A stretch of 64,000 nucleotides of DNA from a phage: assembly GCA_011839185.1 (NCBI GenBank), contig GCA_011839185.1_3918.1; one strand, written 5' to 3'. Numbering within the stretch: position 1 is the stretch's first letter; every line of letters starts with the position of its first letter. Under the pieces are notes generated by a model. That model saw only the letters and a program-made list of their open reading frames with translations, had not been told where the DNA came from and did no database searches. Of this stretch, positions 15,153 through 38,943 are shown piece by piece. The translations under genes and the position numbers were made by a program.

Positions 15153-16193
15153 ATGGAGAAGTACACATTAACAAAGCTTCCCGATTCAGTTACACATGTC
15201 TTTATTGACTCTGATAGTATTGCCTATAAAGGTGCTTGTGTAGTTGAGAAAGCAAAGTATAAATACGTTAATAAACTCACAGCAGAAGAATCTGAACCAT
15301 TTGATAATGCGAAAGATGCTGCAAGATGGTTAGCAGACCAGAGAATCCTTGTGGAAGAGCTTGGCCTGACATTTGAGGAAGATGAATGGGAAAGACAAAC
15401 TTGGAAAGAAGCTAAGAGTGAAAAAGAAGCTATCATGGCTACTCAACAGGTGCTTCAGGAATGGCTTAAGATTGTTGGTAAAGAAAGAACTTGGGTAGGT
15501 TATTTAACAGAGAAGGGTGTGCATAAACATAAAGACATTAAAGGTCTTGAGCACCAATATCAAGGTAATCGTAAAGATGCTGTCACACCAACACACTTAG
15601 TCGCTTGTCGTGAATACCTTTTATCCAGACCAGAGTTCAAGCTCTTAAAGGGGGGCTTCGAAGCCGATTCAATCGTAATTGCTAAAGCTGAAAAGATGGG
15701 TAAGAAGGCTGCTCTTATGAGTATTGACAAAGACCTTCGACAAGCTGAAGGAACTTATTGTATTGATATGACTTATGAAAAATCACCACTAATCTTTATT
15801 GCTGATAACAATGTTGGTGATATCTGGGATTGTCCTATCAAATCAAAACCAAAAGCTGCAAAAACAGTTGGTGTAGGTTTTAAATTCTTGTGCTATCAGG
15901 CTGTTGCTGGAGATAATGCAGACAACTACTTCGGGCTTAAAGGTGCTGGTAAAGTGGCTGTGATGAATGCTTTAGATGGTAAAGAGACCTACAAAGAGTG
16001 TCTTGATGCTATCTATGAACTCTATGCTAAAAAAGACTCTTACACCTATGTATCATGGGATGGACAGACAGTTACAAAGACACCGTTAGAGCTAATGGAA
16101 CAGCATTTCTGGATAGCTTATCAAGAAAGAAATCCAAAAGATAATTTCTCTTTTAAGAAATATAATTGGGAGCCGTGTATGAATGAAGATTAA
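15153..16193 (+). CDS. 5'-3' exonuclease / flap endonuclease
   Basis: GFEADSIVIA (FEN GxEADD-like) and H3TH-like FGLKGAGKVAVMNAL. Confidence 0.7.
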   Translation: MEKYTLTKLPDSVTHVFIDSDSIAYKGACVVEKAKYKYVNKLTAEESEPFDNAKDAARWLADQRILVEELGLTFEEDEWERQTWKEAKSEKEAIMATQQVLQEWLKIVGKERTWVGYLTEKGVHKHKDIKGLEHQYQGNRKDAVTPTHLVACREYLLSRPEFKLLKGGFEADSIVIAKAEKMGKKAALMSIDKDLRQAEGTYCIDMTYEKSPLIFIADNNVGDIWDCPIKSKPKAAKTVGVGFKFLCYQAVAGDNADNYFGLKGAGKVAVMNALDGKETYKECLDAIYELYAKKDSYTYVSWDGQTVTKTPLELMEQHFWIAYQERNPKDNFSFKKYNWEPCMNED

Positions 16194-16680
16194 AGGATTT
16201 GGCAATTGCCCCACCTATGGTCATTGGGTGTCTTTATGTGGGGAAGTTGACCCCACTAAACATTTTGGTTTTGTCTATTTAGTACACTGTAAGAAAACCG
16301 GACAATATTATATCGGAAAGAAACAGCTTAATAGTGTGACTAAAAGAAAAGTTGCTGGCAAGACTCGGAAGAAGGTAGTCACTAAGGAGAGTGATTGGAT
16401 GACTTATGAAACTTCTTCTGAGTATATTAAAAAAGATATTGAGAGCTTTGGAAAAGAATTTTTTGACTTTTACATTATTCAGACCTACTACACAAAAGGT
16501 GGCCTAGTCTATGGTGAAGCAAATCTTCAACATAAATTCGATGTAATGACAAAAAGGATTGACTCTAAGCTCAGACTCTTTTACAATGCCAATATTGCAG
16601 CAATTAAGTTTATTACTAAAGAAACTTATGAAGATGCTGAAAAAAGAATCTATAAGGTAATGAAAGCAAACTGTGCTTGA
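16183..16680 (+). CDS. GIY-YIG domain protein (possible homing endonuclease)
   Basis: FVYLVHCKKTGQYYIGKK fits the GIY...YIG spacing. Confidence 0.45.
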   Translation: MKIKGFGNCPTYGHWVSLCGEVDPTKHFGFVYLVHCKKTGQYYIGKKQLNSVTKRKVAGKTRKKVVTKESDWMTYETSSEYIKKDIESFGKEFFDFYIIQTYYTKGGLVYGEANLQHKFDVMTKRIDSKLRLFYNANIAAIKFITKETYEDAEKRIYKVMKANCA

Positions 16681-27461: not shown

Positions 27462-28343
27462 ATGAAAACAACTATCCGAGTTCTGCTTAATGCTAATACT
27501 AAAGGTAGCATTCAAGAAGTCTTTAACATTATCCAATTCCCGTCTGGTGAGATTGGTGGCAACTTCTCCGAAGACTTTGTTGGATTTGCTGAAAAATTTG
27601 CTGGACAGATTGATAATGCTTTCTTCGCAGTGCAAGGCTATGACAAAGATACGCTATTTGCATTAGCTCTGGCTAAAGAGGCAGTTGATAAATTGGTTCC
27701 TCAAGGTTCAGCTACGAAGACAGTTGTTTTTGGATTCTTACCAAACGCACGTTATGACCGTCACATGTTTAAAGGTGATGCAGCAGCCCTTAAGGTATTT
27801 GCTAATTTGGTAAATGCAATGGAGTTTGATGCAGTATGTGCTTTGGACACTCACAGTAACGTTGCAGAAAACCTTTTCAAGTGCTTCCACAACTTACCTC
27901 AGAAAGAGTTTGCAGCACACTTTGCAAGTGACCCTCGCATTGATTACTTGGTAGCTCCAGATGCAGGTGCAGCTAAGAAGACTGAAGAGACTGCTAAAGA
28001 GGTTGACAAGCCTTACATTACAATGGCAAAAGTTCGCAACCTGAAAACTGGTGAAATCACTGGTATGCGACTTCTCGATGATGTAGACTTAACTGGTAAA
28101 ACCGTCATGATTCTTGATGATATTTGTGATGGTGGTCGAACATTCGTAGAGGCTGCAAAGTGTCTTCGTGAAGCTGGAGCAGAACGTGTGGAACTGTATG
28201 TGACACATGGTATTTTCTCTAAAGGTGTCCAGAACCTTCTTTACAATGGTATTGACCATGTTTATACTACAAACTCTTTAGGAAATGCTGAAGACCGTGG
28301 GTTATCACATTTCAACAAAGTAACTGTAGCAAACCTTGATTAA
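27462..28343 (+). CDS. ribose-phosphate pyrophosphokinase (PRPP synthetase) family protein; candidate ADPR-PP synthetase of a NARP1-type pathway
   Basis: PRTase-type PRPP-binding motif VMILDDICDGGRT; size and layout of Prs family; adjacent to Nampt-family gene. Confidence 0.75.
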   Translation: MKTTIRVLLNANTKGSIQEVFNIIQFPSGEIGGNFSEDFVGFAEKFAGQIDNAFFAVQGYDKDTLFALALAKEAVDKLVPQGSATKTVVFGFLPNARYDRHMFKGDAAALKVFANLVNAMEFDAVCALDTHSNVAENLFKCFHNLPQKEFAAHFASDPRIDYLVAPDAGAAKKTEETAKEVDKPYITMAKVRNLKTGEITGMRLLDDVDLTGKTVMILDDICDGGRTFVEAAKCLREAGAERVELYVTHGIFSKGVQNLLYNGIDHVYTTNSLGNAEDRGLSHFNKVTVANLD

Positions 28344-28352
28344 AACTTTATA

Positions 28353-28374
28353 GGGGCTTTTAAGCCCCATTTTG
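28353..28374 (+). terminator. short hairpin between the two NAD-salvage genes
   Basis: GGGGCTTTTAAGCCCC then ATTTT. Confidence 0.35.
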
Positions 28375-28388
28375 AGAGAGATTAAAAG

Positions 28389-30170
28389 ATGACTAAATCA
28401 CTTTATGCAGTACCAGCAGGTTTAAACGCAGATGCTTACAAATCTGGTCACATTTACCAGTATCCTAGTGCAACAGAATACTTGATGTTCAACCTAACAC
28501 CACGTAGTGACAAATGGTTTAACAGCCCTTTAGCAATTGACGGTGTAGTGGCTTTTGGTATTCAACGTTTTGTTAAAGATTACCTGATAGACCACTGGAA
28601 CGCCACCTTCTTTGAACGTGACAAAAAAGAAGCAATTGATGAAATCTTAGAAGTCATGAACGGTGTTCTGGGTAAAGATGCTATTGGTCGAGAGCATTGG
28701 GAAGCACTCCATGACTTAGGTTATCTACCAGTTGAAGTATACGCTGTAGAAGAAGGCACAGTTGTCCCTATGCGTGTACCAATTATTGTCTTCCAGAACA
28801 CTGTTTCAGGTTTCCATTGGGTAGCGGGGTATCTTGAAGATGCTTTCTCTGCTGAGATTTGGAAGGCTTGTACCATTGCAACTATTGCATTGCACTACAA
28901 ACGTATCTGTAAGAAGTGGGCTGACCTTACTTGTGACAACGACTTGCATTTACCTTATCAGTGCCATGACTTTGCTATGCGTGGTATGTCCGGCTTTACT
29001 GATGACGCATTTAACGCTGTAGGACACTTAACCAGCTTTAAAGGAACTGATAGTTTCCCTGCTGTGTATACAGCTAAACGCATCTATGGGCAGTCCTACC
29101 CAATCTCTGATATTGGTAGTTCTGTACCAGCCACTGAACACTCTGTAATGTGTGCAAACATTGCTTGGGAAGGTGGTAATGAATTGATTGAAGAAGAAAG
29201 ACGCTTCAAAGGTGAGTTGCAAACCTTCCGTCGCTTCTTAACAGAGACTTACCCGACTGGTATTGCAAGTATTGTTTCAGACACTTATAACTTCTGGAGA
29301 ACTGTGTCAGAAATCTTGCCAGCACTTCGCAAAGAGATTATGGAACGTGACGGTAAACTGGTAATTCGTCCTGACTCTGGAGACCCTGTACATATTGTCA
29401 CAGGTTATAAAGCAATCCACTTAGAGTGTGCTAAAAAGGCTTATTATGAACACCTAAGCAAGCTGGAAGCCAGTGACACAATGCTGAATGCTGTTCTGAA
29501 CATGAAGCTTGAGAATATCAACTATGGTATTGCTGGATGGCTACTGTCAGAAGGCTATGAAATGGTTGTTGACAGAGAAGACTTTGAAGTTGCTGATACA
29601 GTGATGTTGAAAAATGCTTATATGGTTGGTTCTGCAAACGTTGTAACACGTCCTGTAGCAGAGATTGATGGGGCCATTAAGACCCTGTATAACATCTTTG
29701 GAGGAACTATCAACTCTAAAGGGTTTAAGGTACTGGATGAGCACATTGGACTTATCTATGGTGACTCTATCACGTTGGAACGTGCAAACGAAATCCTGAA
29801 GCGTTTGTATGAAATGGGTTTTGCAAGTTCTAACGTAGTGTTTGGTGTAGGTTCTTACACTTACCAGTACATGACTCGTGACACCTTTGCATTTGCTGTC
29901 AAAGCAACTCTTGCGAGCATTGGTGGTAAAGAGATTATGCTTGCAAAAGACCCTAAAACAGATAGTGGTATTAAGAAGTCTGCTTTTGGTGGTGTAGCCC
30001 CTATGTGGGATGGTGAGAACCTGAAAGCTGTAGATGGCTATGGATTCCAGAGTTTTGCAGATGCACTTGAACACCCAGCTTGTGCTTTACGTCTAGTCTT
30101 TAGCGACTCTGAGCAGTTCGGCTACACAACTCTTGGCGATATTCGAAATAATATTGACAAGCAGCTTTAA
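28389..30170 (+). CDS. nicotinamide phosphoribosyltransferase family protein (Nampt/NadV-like; candidate Namat)
   Basis: Matches to Nampt motifs as recalled: NADAYKSGH, HDFAMRGMSGF...FKGTDS, VPATEHSVM, IRPDSGDP. Confidence 0.85.
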   Translation: MTKSLYAVPAGLNADAYKSGHIYQYPSATEYLMFNLTPRSDKWFNSPLAIDGVVAFGIQRFVKDYLIDHWNATFFERDKKEAIDEILEVMNGVLGKDAIGREHWEALHDLGYLPVEVYAVEEGTVVPMRVPIIVFQNTVSGFHWVAGYLEDAFSAEIWKACTIATIALHYKRICKKWADLTCDNDLHLPYQCHDFAMRGMSGFTDDAFNAVGHLTSFKGTDSFPAVYTAKRIYGQSYPISDIGSSVPATEHSVMCANIAWEGGNELIEEERRFKGELQTFRRFLTETYPTGIASIVSDTYNFWRTVSEILPALRKEIMERDGKLVIRPDSGDPVHIVTGYKAIHLECAKKAYYEHLSKLEASDTMLNAVLNMKLENINYGIAGWLLSEGYEMVVDREDFEVADTVMLKNAYMVGSANVVTRPVAEIDGAIKTLYNIFGGTINSKGFKVLDEHIGLIYGDSITLERANEILKRLYEMGFASSNVVFGVGSYTYQYMTRDTFAFAVKATLASIGGKEIMLAKDPKTDSGIKKSAFGGVAPMWDGENLKAVDGYGFQSFADALEHPACALRLVFSDSEQFGYTTLGDIRNNIDKQL

Positions 30171-36109: not shown

Positions 36110-36133
36110 CAGGCTCCTTCGGGAGCCTTTTTC
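36110..36133 (+). terminator. rho-independent terminator
   Basis: AGGCTCC TTCG GGAGCCT followed by TTTTTC. Confidence 0.55.
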
Positions 36134-36930: not shown

Positions 36931-37257
36931 ATGCAGATTAATGGAAGAGACTTTGTAGCCGTTTACTACGAGAAAGATAAAGAGGTTGGTGTAGCACAAG
37001 TAACTTACGGCAATGGTAAGTGGCTATATGGAACAATCGCAGTAGTTGGAACAAGAAGTGACACAAAAACTTTTAAAGATTGTGTTGACCTTCTTGAAGA
37101 ATCCATTCAGAATCATTGGTGTCTGATATGGATGACTGACAACGAAGTGATAGAACGCTTCAAAAAGATTGATATCAACATTGATAGTATTGAGCATGTT
37201 GATTTATACGAGCTAACTGAGAAGGTAAACTATGAAAGTAATACTAGCCAGAGATAA
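36931..37257 (+). CDS. hypothetical protein (108 aa)
   Basis: ORF only. Confidence 0.4.
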   Translation: MQINGRDFVAVYYEKDKEVGVAQVTYGNGKWLYGTIAVVGTRSDTKTFKDCVDLLEESIQNHWCLIWMTDNEVIERFKKIDINIDSIEHVDLYELTEKVNYESNTSQR

Positions 37258-37459
37258 AAAGACACGAAAGCTTATCAGGTCAGCAGTGTTCATTGGACGA
37301 AATGAGGTCATCCCATTTACAGCAAATGATGTGATAGCTTACAGGAAGAACTTAGTATTCACTGACTGCTTACGTGGCTTCATCTCTGAACCATTGGAAG
37401 ACTTTAAAAGTCGTTGTGGTAAAGGTATCATCATTCAAGAGGCAATTATTCATGGCTGA
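37232..37459 (+). CDS. hypothetical protein (75 aa)
   Basis: ORF only. Confidence 0.3.
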   Translation: MKVILARDKKTRKLIRSAVFIGRNEVIPFTANDVIAYRKNLVFTDCLRGFISEPLEDFKSRCGKGIIIQEAIIHG

Positions 37460-37652
37460 CTTCTGTAAAGATTGTTCTATCGAAATGTTCGGACGTGATA
37501 CAGGTGACTTAAAAGGTCTTATCACTGAAGATGACTTTAAAGCTGGTTATGCAATGCCAGTAATCTGTGAAGGTTGTGGGTGCATCTGGGTAGACCACGA
37601 AGGGCAGCGTGTAAAACCTTCAGAAGATAAAGAATCTTGGGAGAGATGTTAA
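37452..37652 (+). CDS. small zinc-ribbon-like protein
   Basis: MADFCKDCS...CEGCGC cysteine pairs; start set at internal ATG. Confidence 0.35.
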   Translation: MADFCKDCSIEMFGRDTGDLKGLITEDDFKAGYAMPVICEGCGCIWVDHEGQRVKPSEDKESWERC

Positions 37653-38438
37653 ATGGGTATTGTAAAAATCATCAATGGCGATATCTTTGCCGCATTTGAT
37701 AAAGGTAAGTTTGACATTATTGGTCACGGTTGCAACTGTATGAATTTAATGGGTGCAGGTATCGCTGACAAGATTTCTAAACTTTACCCAAAAGCATATG
37801 AGACAGATACAGAAGTCTATCTATATGCAGGTGGCATAGGTCACAAACCCTGTGAAAATTTACTGGGTAATTTCTCTGTAGCACGTTTAAAACAAGGTCG
37901 TATAGCTAACCTTTACACTCAGCTTAAGACTGGTAAAGATGCCCGATACAGTGCTTTAGAGTCATCTTTGAAACAGCTTAACAGATACTGTGAAGTTAAT
38001 CAGTTGAAGAAAGTTGGTTTACCTATGATTGGTGCAGGTATAGGTGGGCTGGACCCTCAAGCTGTCACAGTTATCATCAATCAGGTGATGAAGAGTGTAG
38101 ATGTTTATCTGTATGTCTATGAAGGAGAGATGTACCACAAGTTACGCTCAGGTTGGAAGAACTACTGTGAACCAGAATACTTTGCAGGTGTAGCAGTGTT
38201 CACGGATAACGCAGTTACCCTCTTCAGACGAAGAAAAGGTAAGATACATCAAAGTAACCCTCCGGTTGAAAGGATGTCTCTAAGTAACGCTCTAGTTACC
38301 CACCTGTCGAAGAGCAATCACAGAATAGCTGTGACATTTGGTAGTGATGCAGATGCTTACATCTATGCAAGAACTGATGAGGATATCGAGGCAATTTTCT
38401 CATCACCGGAAGTTACCTTCTTAGACGCAAAGAACTAA
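37653..38438 (+). CDS. macro-domain (ADP-ribose binding/processing) protein
   Basis: INGDIF...DIIGHGCNCMNLMGAGIA and LPMIGAGIGG resemble macro-domain signature regions as recalled from YmdB/MacroD. Confidence 0.65.
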   Translation: MGIVKIINGDIFAAFDKGKFDIIGHGCNCMNLMGAGIADKISKLYPKAYETDTEVYLYAGGIGHKPCENLLGNFSVARLKQGRIANLYTQLKTGKDARYSALESSLKQLNRYCEVNQLKKVGLPMIGAGIGGLDPQAVTVIINQVMKSVDVYLYVYEGEMYHKLRSGWKNYCEPEYFAGVAVFTDNAVTLFRRRKGKIHQSNPPVERMSLSNALVTHLSKSNHRIAVTFGSDADAYIYARTDEDIEAIFSSPEVTFLDAKN

Positions 38439-38439
38439 G

Positions 38440-38760
38440 AAACTCTGTAGAATATTCACAATAGACTAAGCCTTTCTTATCTGGTAAATTTTTCAGGTAA
38501 GGGGGGCTTTTTCATTTCAGGATTGTGCAGGTAGAGTTCTGTATAGAAATCTGTAGAGAAAATTTTGAACTCCAAAGGGAAAATTCATTTTCAAGCTGTG
38601 CAGGTAATCTCCAAAGAGCTTTTTCATTTTCAAAACGTGCAGACCCCGCTCAGGTCGGGCAAGAAAAATCATTTTAGAATCGTGCAGGTAGGTTTTTATA
38701 GAGAGTCAGACCAACCCCTCTCCCCCTCTTACTCCCCCTCTCCCCAAAAGTCAAGAGAAA
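38440..38760. repeat. direct repeats of a CATTTTCA...GTGCAGGTA box plus a C/T-only tract
   Basis: At least four copies (near 38505, 38585, 38625, 38672) and cccctctccccctcttactccccctctcccc at 38716-38748. Confidence 0.55.
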
Positions 38761-38865
38761 AATTTGTAGTGGATTGAAAAATAATTCTTGATTTGTGTTT
38801 TGTTTTGTGGTAGTCGTGCGCGCCCGTTCATTTCCCAACCTTACAAAAATATTTAATAAAAACCG

Positions 38866-38894
38866 TTGACACGCCAAACAAGTTTACGTACTAT
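38866..38894 (+). promoter_or_regulatory. sigma70-like promoter in front of the small-gene array
   Basis: TTGACA, 17-nt spacer, TACTAT. Confidence 0.45.
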
Positions 38895-38943
38895 TTGCAT
38901 CAGACGGGCAAGCTAGCCACTTCCTAAACTGGAGAATCTAAAA

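Follow-up and report, generated by a model that had tools for sequence, protein, structure and literature searches.

NARP1, a phage pathway that rebuilds NAD+ from ADP-ribose (ADPR) and nicotinamide, was found by deleting genes 79-80 of the BASEL phage Bas63 (MZ501086; bioRxiv 10.1101/2024.02.11.579819). Work on aRES proteins of E. coli, Klebsiella and Enterobacter has shown that these proteins carry out NAD+ phosphorolysis, yielding nicotinamide and ADPR-1''-phosphate, that NARP1 cannot use the latter, and that NARP1 alone fails against aRES (Osterman et al., bioRxiv 10.64898/2026.01.28.702374). Some phages encode a Poa1p-like macro protein, Adpp, inside the NARP1 operon; the one from Vibrio phage Gary (KNV71_gp137), when purified, converts ADPR-1''-phosphate to ADPR in vitro, and in the extended pathway, NARP1-AP, Adps and Namat use this ADPR to rebuild NAD+ (bioRxiv 10.64898/2026.01.28.702374). 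The three-gene operon of Gary overcomes aRES, with Adps, Adpp and Namat all needed, and Adpp H24A is inactive. The same study reported 859 NARP1 pathways in 20,185 phage genomes and, with a survey criterion that placed the macro gene no more than two genes from Adps/Namat, recruitment of the macro phosphatase by only ~15% of NARP1 operons. Here we analyze a two-domain macro protein gene located well outside the NARP1 operon of the window, by which we mean the whole 64,000-nucleotide stretch of phage DNA from contig GCA_011839185.1_3918.1 (NCBI GenBank assembly GCA_011839185.1). We put the chance at about even that this gene encodes an Adpp-like ADPR-1''-phosphatase feeding the phage's own NARP1, which would amount to a dispersed NARP1-AP.

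For the substrate, the coupling to NARP1 and the defense that is countered, we infer the following. RES-domain NAD+ phosphorylases (aRES) would cut host NAD+ to ADPR-1''-phosphate. The macro domain, as a Poa1p/Adpp-type hydrolase acting on the 1'' position of a soluble ADPR derivative, would most likely strip the phosphate from this product to release free ADPR. Adps, encoded 7.5 kb upstream, would convert the freed ADPR to ADPR-pyrophosphate, from which Namat, with nicotinamide, would regenerate NAD+. The three-enzyme pathway would be dispersed, its phosphatase being encoded outside the operon as a two-domain early protein.

The first-pass annotation had reported an open reading frame (ORF) with macro-domain signatures at 37653-38438, and both the exact ORF and its motifs are present. 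Translation places GDIF at residues 9-12, DIIGHGCNCMNLMGAGIA at 21-38 and LPMIGAGIGG at 123-132, and a Shine-Dalgarno-like GGGAGAG lies ~8-14 nt before the ATG. The Pfam model PF01661 (Macro) matches residues 25-141 over profile positions 2-117 of 118 with 32.3 bits against a gathering cutoff of 22 (expectation value, E, 1e-7), and the PHROG family phrog_335, annotated as 'phosphatase', matches over the full length at E 7e-113. When compared with the PDB, the family profile retrieved macro domains of the Poa1p/TARG1/DarG class at E 1e-16 to 1e-23. An AlphaFold2 model of the 261-amino-acid protein (mean predicted local distance difference test, pLDDT, 85.6; predicted template-modeling score, pTM, 0.85) fits TARG1, DarG and Poa1p with target-normalized template-modeling (TM) scores of 0.74-0.83; it matched 223 PDB chains at E <= 0.001, and the top 50 hits listed were macro-fold proteins without exception. 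Homology and predicted fold together identify the N-terminal part as a macro domain.

The window genome is that of a Felixounavirus. It is ~93% identical in nucleotides to many Escherichia/Salmonella Felix O1-like phages, and its macro protein is 100% identical to that of Felixounavirus AN17P8. We found the full-length protein (coverage >= 80%) in 258 phage records, where GenBank labels among relatives include 'macro domain protein', 'putative phosphatase' and, in some cases, ymdB or O-acetyl-ADP-ribose deacetylase; the orthologs in Bas63 (bas63_0095, 97.3% identical) and in phage ekra (ekra_14) are both annotated 'putative phosphatase'. The macro domain, its likely chemistry and its public annotation as a 'putative phosphatase' or 'macro domain protein' are already known; in the literature we found no paper on the macro gene of Felix O1-type phages. 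Among four close relatives, the ratio of nonsynonymous to synonymous substitution rates (dN/dS) of the macro domain is 0.00-0.02, from small substitution counts, indicating that the domain is under strong constraint.

By profile, the nearest solved proteins are BT1257, SCO6735, Mtb DarG, Poa1p and TARG1, and these comparisons place the macro domain in the Poa1p/TARG1/DarG (ALC1-like) class. All of the predicted ADPR-binding elements are there: the N-terminal G-D, the glycine-rich loop that follows strand 2, and the second of the phosphate-binding loops. In family alignments the adenine contact G9-D10 is conserved to at least 90%, the loops M33-G34-A35-G36-I37-A38 and P124-x-I-G127-A-G129-I-G-G132 are conserved or invariant, and H25, N28, Q90, P124 and G127 are invariant. 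A profile search against macro-domain families, which the first-pass annotation had proposed as a check, therefore gave significant matches, in this class and not in MacroD/YmdB. No YmdB or MacroD1/2 chain was among the profile matches to the PDB at E <= 0.01, and MacroD-like viral nsP3 domains gave only a single-sequence match at E ~1e-3, far from the profile values for the Poa1p/TARG1/DarG class. On this ranking of similarities we reject the YmdB/MacroD (O-acetyl-ADPR deacetylase) label.

Within this class, sequence comparison makes Adpp the closest functionally validated relative of the window macro domain. Gary Adpp aligns with the window protein in BLASTP at E 2e-13 (residues 3-154 to 1-156), with H25 opposite the essential H24, and hhalign of the window family against eleven NARP1-linked macro proteins from Table S1 of the aRES study gives 99.94% at E 1.1e-36. 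The residues listed for Poa1p are His23, Asn26, Ser30 and Gly33 (Chiu et al. 2021, as cited in PMC12846349). The first two correspond to H25 and N28, which are invariant in the window family, in ten NARP1-linked macro proteins including Adpp, and in other phage homologs.

The NAD module of the window is the prototype NARP1, because its Adps and Namat are orthologous to genes 79-80 of Bas63, itself a Felixounavirus. As the first-pass annotation had stated, the macro gene lies a few kb downstream of this module: its start is 7,483 bp past the stop of the Nampt-like gene, Namat, with fourteen genes between on the Bas63 map, where bas63_0095 is likewise 14 genes downstream of the NARP1 operon. Because it is 7.5 kb from NARP1 and outside the two-gene limit, the gene was missed by the aRES survey. 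NARP1-region DNA, macro-region DNA and the full-length macro protein each occur in 258 phage records with near-identical organism breakdowns. In three metagenomic loci whose macro proteins are 33-42% identical to that of the window (L002, L003 and L004), NARP1 is found ~9-10 kb upstream. These loci and the Kolesnikvirus Erwinia phage phiEa104 keep the order NARP1, rIIA/B, polynucleotide kinase, macro; in the permuted record of phiEa104, Adps and Namat are immediately upstream of rIIA. The link between the macro gene and NARP1 is thus supported by homology to the Adpp set, the conserved His, and lineage-wide co-occurrence. The hosts also fit, since E. coli, from which aRES has been cloned, is infected by phages of the Felix O1-like group, and aRES homologs are listed for Escherichia and Salmonella (bioRxiv 10.64898/2026.01.28.702374).

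Outside this lineage, we sampled 80 IMG/VR viral loci carrying macro-only relatives (30-43% identity) and scored NARP1 within 10 kb. Namat and/or Adps were present at 17 of the 80 loci (21%), and a rough neighbor-joining tree spreads the NARP1-linked members across the family. This distribution suggests that one phage macro family has been recruited to NARP1 repeatedly. Co-occurrence with NARP1, which the first-pass annotation had put forward as a check for the Nampt-like gene, is therefore complete in the lineage of the window, and Namat and/or Adps lie near the macro gene at only about a fifth of the unrelated macro-only loci. On ~10 of these 80 otherwise unrelated contigs (L007-L009, L012, L026, L028, L036, L038, L042 and L069), rIIA/rIIB homologs are found a few kb or less from the macro gene, as they are in the window, and the two may belong to a conserved early 'host-interaction' gene block.

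Several observations weigh against an Adpp-like role. The macro gene is outside the NARP1 operon, with terminator-like hairpins in between, and the co-occurrence in Ounavirinae is a single inherited event and not independent evidence. In the independent sample, 63 of the 80 loci (~79%), including contigs of ~170 kb, have no NARP1 gene within 10 kb, so the family has some NARP1-independent role. Poa1p Ser30 and Gly33 are replaced by L32 and A35 in the window protein; this objection is tempered by Gary Adpp, which has R31 and R34 there, so that these two residues do not define the phage enzymes. In the Kolesnikvirus orthologs the essential His is replaced by Gln (IAQGCNC or IGQGCNC in the two lineages checked), and NARP1 is nonetheless retained in phiEa104. 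The extra C-terminal domain of the window protein is found in no validated or NARP1-adjacent Adpp. Of 5,426 complete E. coli genomes, only 12 carry the aRES allele of E. coli UC5 (one allele, at the DNA level), whereas the macro gene is universal in the lineage; all copies of the allele are chromosomal (e.g., NZ_CP038791.1 2133262..2133660), under the label 'RES family NAD+ phosphorylase' or 'RES domain-containing protein'. Finally, Table S1 of the aRES study includes no Escherichia or Salmonella phage (bioRxiv 10.64898/2026.01.28.702374), 'Bas63' and 'Felix' are absent from its supplementary files, and no Felix O1-like phage was found in the available part of its phage list, which carries no information either way.

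The loci that lack NARP1 fit a NARP1-independent clean-up enzyme, an explanation we regard as possible, if somewhat unlikely. Here the protein would be an ADPR-1''-phosphatase and/or O-acetyl-ADPR deacetylase removing ADPR-1''-phosphate, Appr>p or O-acetyl-ADPR produced by RES toxins, by a host KptA-type RNA 2'-phosphotransferase or by sirtuins, and the proximity to NARP1 would be incidental early-region synteny. Related macro genes adjoin vs in T4-like phages, some GenBank records carry the deacetylase name, and the rarity of aRES in E. coli, set against a macro gene that is kept throughout the lineage under strong constraint, sits more easily with such a general function. In addition, a polynucleotide kinase gene lies ~2 kb upstream throughout Ounavirinae, and Poa1p natively serves in the removal of eukaryotic tRNA-splicing by-products (bioRxiv 10.64898/2026.01.28.702374). 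However, the annotation of SeKF_63, a close relative, lists no KptA/Tpt1, 2H phosphoesterase or RNA ligase, and YmdB/MacroD-type proteins are missing from the significant profile matches. Furthermore, NARP1 is enriched at least 5-fold near family members and is present in every two-domain carrier with enough flanking sequence, which argues against incidental synteny. Biochemically this explanation overlaps with that of an Adpp-like phosphatase, because the released ADPR would feed NARP1 anyway.

It is unlikely that the macro domain acts on macromolecules, removing ADP-ribose that host transferases such as DarT or CmdT have put on phage DNA, RNA or proteins. The protein would then be an orphan DarG/TARG1-like antitoxin mimic, with a C-terminal domain that binds the target or the toxin as in DarG, and the layout of a macro domain plus a C-terminal domain does recall DarG. 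The sole NCBIfam match is the DarG antitoxin (E 1e-12, residues 7-163), the best structural matches are TARG1 and DarG (TM 0.77-0.83), and phage DarG-like macro proteins countering DarTG have been documented in ICP1 and chimalliviruses. A close solved relative, SCO6735 (5e3b), also has Gln at the Q90 position, and SCO6735 has been reported to de-MARylate proteins. On the other hand, the catalytic Lys of DarG (K80) and TARG1 (K84) aligns with the invariant Q90, and TARG1 D125 aligns with G131; the replacement of the Lys by an invariant Gln disfavors a DarG-like glycohydrolase. The DarG model scores 48 bits against an equivalog cutoff of 250 and is matched over positions 4-153 of 338, which is its macro part only. 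On the missing lysine and the sub-cutoff score we reject membership in the DarG family itself. Moreover, the C-terminal domain resembles nothing, DarG included, and the nearest functionally tested phage homolog, Adpp, is a small-molecule phosphatase. A 2022 survey likewise sees phage macro domains acting mainly on soluble ADPR derivatives (PMC9503650). Reversal of an ADP-ribosylation by the phage itself is also disfavored: no ADP-ribosyltransferase is annotated in SeKF_63, so there is no obvious phage-made modification to undo, although this is a weak negative, as many genes there are hypothetical.

The first-pass annotation had linked the macro gene to the Prs-like/Nampt-like pair and proposed that the phage either handles ADPR-containing products of host defenses or recycles ADPR for NAD reconstitution. 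As an inference, the link gains support from the NARP1-AP precedent, the homology to Adpp, the conserved His and the co-occurrence. Recycling of ADPR for NAD reconstitution now has a published precedent, whereas general de-ADP-ribosylation is weakened by the absence of the TARG1/DarG catalytic lysine.

The first-pass annotation had also pointed to an extra C-terminal region of about 100 amino acids, and residues 157-261 indeed form a compact predicted domain that is kept in relatives down to 33% identity, with P174, G179 and Y236 conserved. In the AlphaFold2 model it is mostly beta, with one helix followed by six strands and short helices, and its blocks have pLDDT of ~79-92. The domain has no Pfam match, a fold search of BFVD returned only its own ortholog, and a search among 1.84 billion representative proteins gave ten hits, the credible ones being members of this two-domain family, whole or in fragments. 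Its dN/dS among the four close relatives (0.06-0.33, again from small counts) indicates that it is translated and constrained, less tightly than the macro domain. We conclude that it is a real, constrained, lineage-specific module, which may modulate the access of substrate or contact a partner. Macro domains of phages usually stand alone (Iyer et al. 2022, PMC9503650), and thus the combination of a macro and a C-terminal domain is unusual.

Orthologs in Kolesnikvirus, the sister genus, are syntenic and also ~260 amino acids long; those compared are from phiEa104 (gp016, L086 8483..9265) and Erwinia phage Hena2 (L095). In their C-terminal half they show no relationship to the window protein (hhalign 0.07%). 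The Kolesnikvirus gene is conserved in 35 phage records with Gln in place of the essential His, and so His-dependent phosphatase chemistry is not needed for its retention in every lineage. Exchange is also seen closer to the window. In L004 (Logan contig SRR18206799, 9560..10780, compared with window 37232..38438), which has a Felixounavirus backbone, identity drops to only 42% in the macro protein and to 32% in the second ORF upstream of it, whereas Namat is 98% identical, rIIA, rIIB and the polynucleotide kinase 97-99%, and a Cys-rich 66-amino-acid ORF directly upstream of the macro gene 100%. A 42% macro allele among genes of 97-100% identity makes the macro locus look like an exchange hot spot, a pattern common among host-interaction genes. 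Mosaicism extends to the NARP1 operon, since between the window and ekra or Bas63 Adps is 81-82% identical and the adjacent Namat 98%. What is new here is that, in the prototype NARP1 lineage, a candidate Adpp is encoded far from the operon, where a search by the published adjacency criterion does not reach, and that this candidate enzyme is fused to an orphan domain that an unrelated one replaces in the sister genus, at a mosaic locus.

By analogy with DarG, which joins a macro enzyme to a toxin-binding domain, the protein could be a bifunctional anti-defense factor; we hold this to be quite unlikely. The macro domain would regenerate ADPR for NARP1, and the exchangeable C-terminal module would dock on an NAD+-degrading defense protein of the host or on Adps/Namat, the latter for substrate channeling. 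An arms race at the C-terminal interface would be in line with the Kolesnikvirus swap and His loss, the 42% allele in L004 and the zinc-ribbon-like 66-amino-acid ORF that is probably coupled to the macro gene. If this were true, the C-terminal domain would represent a new protein fold family with a defense-inhibiting role. A non-catalytic binder, whose macro domain sequesters an ADPR-based signal or product stoichiometrically while the C-terminal domain blocks a host defense protein, could account for the conserved Kolesnikvirus orthologs without the essential His and for a C-terminal swap and Felixounavirus mosaicism typical of arms-race binding interfaces, and both direct binders of aRES (aRad1) and sponges for ADPR signals are known from phages, but it is very improbable, as H25, N28 and the phosphate loops are invariant in the window lineage with dN/dS ~0.01, as for an active enzyme, and there is neither a known partner nor similarity to known sponges or aRad1.

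From the NAD module to the macro gene (Table 1), the order is Adps, Namat, rIIA, rIIB, an SLT-like lysin, polynucleotide kinase, spanins, several small ORFs and macro. The 66-amino-acid ORF and the macro gene are probably translationally coupled, which we propose because the stop codon of the first directly adjoins the start codon of the second. This ORF is 98.5% identical to bas63_0094 and matches no Pfam family. In the distant relative L002, a 63-amino-acid CxxC...CxxC ORF overlaps the macro start, and it shows no detectable homology to the window ORF. From the positions of the terminator-like hairpins, the macro gene would be transcribed separately from NARP1, and it probably ends a transcription unit. 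In the ~500 bp past the macro gene (38439..38943) there is no conserved long ORF, and a few very small ORFs are annotated there in relatives. In the Adps-Namat region of phage ekra (L001 2991..6170, compared with window 27462..30170), an HNH homing endonuclease separates the two genes; the window has none there. One further candidate NAD enzyme was rejected: the 'NAD synthetase' of relatives (SeKF_63 CDS0102, phiEa104 gp099) is a SegE-like GIY-YIG endonuclease (PF19835, 97 bits).

Table 1. Features of the window discussed in the text, with positions counted from its first nucleotide.
Feature	Position	Strand	Basis or remark
Two-domain macro protein gene	37653..38438	+	ATG start; 261 amino acids + stop
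Macro domain, Poa1p/Adpp-like	37653..38120	+	Residues 1-156; homology and fold match
H25 codon (CAC)	37725..37727	+	
N28 codon (AAC)	37734..37736	+	
Q90 codon (CAG)	37920..37922	+	
Phosphate-binding loop P124-G132 (LPMIGAGIGG)	within macro domain	+	Conserved or invariant in family alignments
C-terminal orphan domain	38121..38435	+	Residues 157-261, ~105 amino acids
Adps (ADP-ribose diphosphokinase, Prs-like)	27462..28343	+	Pfam Pribosyltran/Pribosyl_synth, NCBIfam ribP_PPkin; 81% identical to bas63_0079
Namat (nicotinamide ADP-ribose transferase, Nampt-like)	28389..30170	+	Pfam NAPRTase/NAMPT_N; 98% identical to bas63_0080
66-amino-acid Cys-rich ORF (CxxC...CxxC, zinc-ribbon-like; MADFCKDC...CEGCGC)	37452..37652	+	TAA stop adjoins macro ATG
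Terminator-like hairpin	36111..36128		Between NARP1/rII/polynucleotide kinase block and macro unit; consensus scan, pattern match only
Terminator-like hairpin with T-run	38468..38509	+	30 bp past macro stop; consensus scan, pattern match only
Promoter-like TTGACA-17-TACTAT	38866..38894		Before next gene; pattern match only
SegE-like GIY-YIG endonuclease	16183..16680	+	PF19835; 'NAD synthetase' label is a propagated annotation error

If the gene encodes a working Adpp, the prototype NARP1 lineage already has its phosphatase, in at least 258 Felixounavirus-type and 35 Kolesnikvirus-type records. In that case considerably more of the NARP1 phages than reported would be protected from NAD+ phosphorolysis of the RES type, and operon adjacency would underestimate anti-defense pathways. 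The orphan C-terminal domain, with its genus-specific replacement, is an unexplained structural element in a well-known enzyme family. Since Felix O1-like phages are used for typing and biocontrol of Salmonella and E. coli, their anti-defense repertoire is of practical relevance.

Among solved proteins, the window macro domain scores highest by profile against the bacterial BT1257 (2AFC/2FG1) and Streptomyces SCO6735 (5E3B), at E 2e-23 to 4e-23, sharing with them H-x-C-N and the Gln at the Q90 position; these are cellular proteins of ~160-180 amino acids and lack the C-terminal domain. The best structural matches, of the same class, are TARG1/OARD1 (4J5R) and the macro domain of DarG (5M31, 5M3I), but they cleave ADP-ribose off proteins or DNA, with the catalytic Lys and the Asp (D125) that are Gln and Gly in the window protein. 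Yeast Poa1p (PDB 6LFQ/6LFR), an ADP-ribose 1''-phosphate phosphatase, matches over the whole macro domain (profile E 8e-18, TM 0.74) and shares the His and Asn; it differs in having Ser at the position of the invariant phage Q90, in Ser30 and Gly33, and in lacking a C-terminal domain. Among phage proteins, single-domain macro proteins of ~150-165 amino acids, such as those of T4-like genes beside vs, annotated Tk.4 in Acinetobacter phages Acj9 and Acj61, are 33-37% identical over residues 3-160, have the same invariant residues, and are encoded in early regions, in many cases close to rIIA/rIIB; no paper on the function of the T4 tk.4 macro gene was found in the literature. These single-domain proteins lack the C-terminal domain and have no NARP1 gene within 10 kb.

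Adpp differs in being a single domain of ~158 amino acids (149-168 in the entries available from Table S1) encoded inside the NARP1 operon, whereas the window protein has 261 amino acids with an orphan C-terminal domain, is 27% identical to it and is encoded 14 genes and 7.5 kb from NARP1, probably in another transcription unit. Nevertheless, the window protein and Adpp belong to the same phage macro family, share the HxCNC...MGxGIA and PxIGxG loops and the essential His, and come from genomes that also encode both Adps and Namat.

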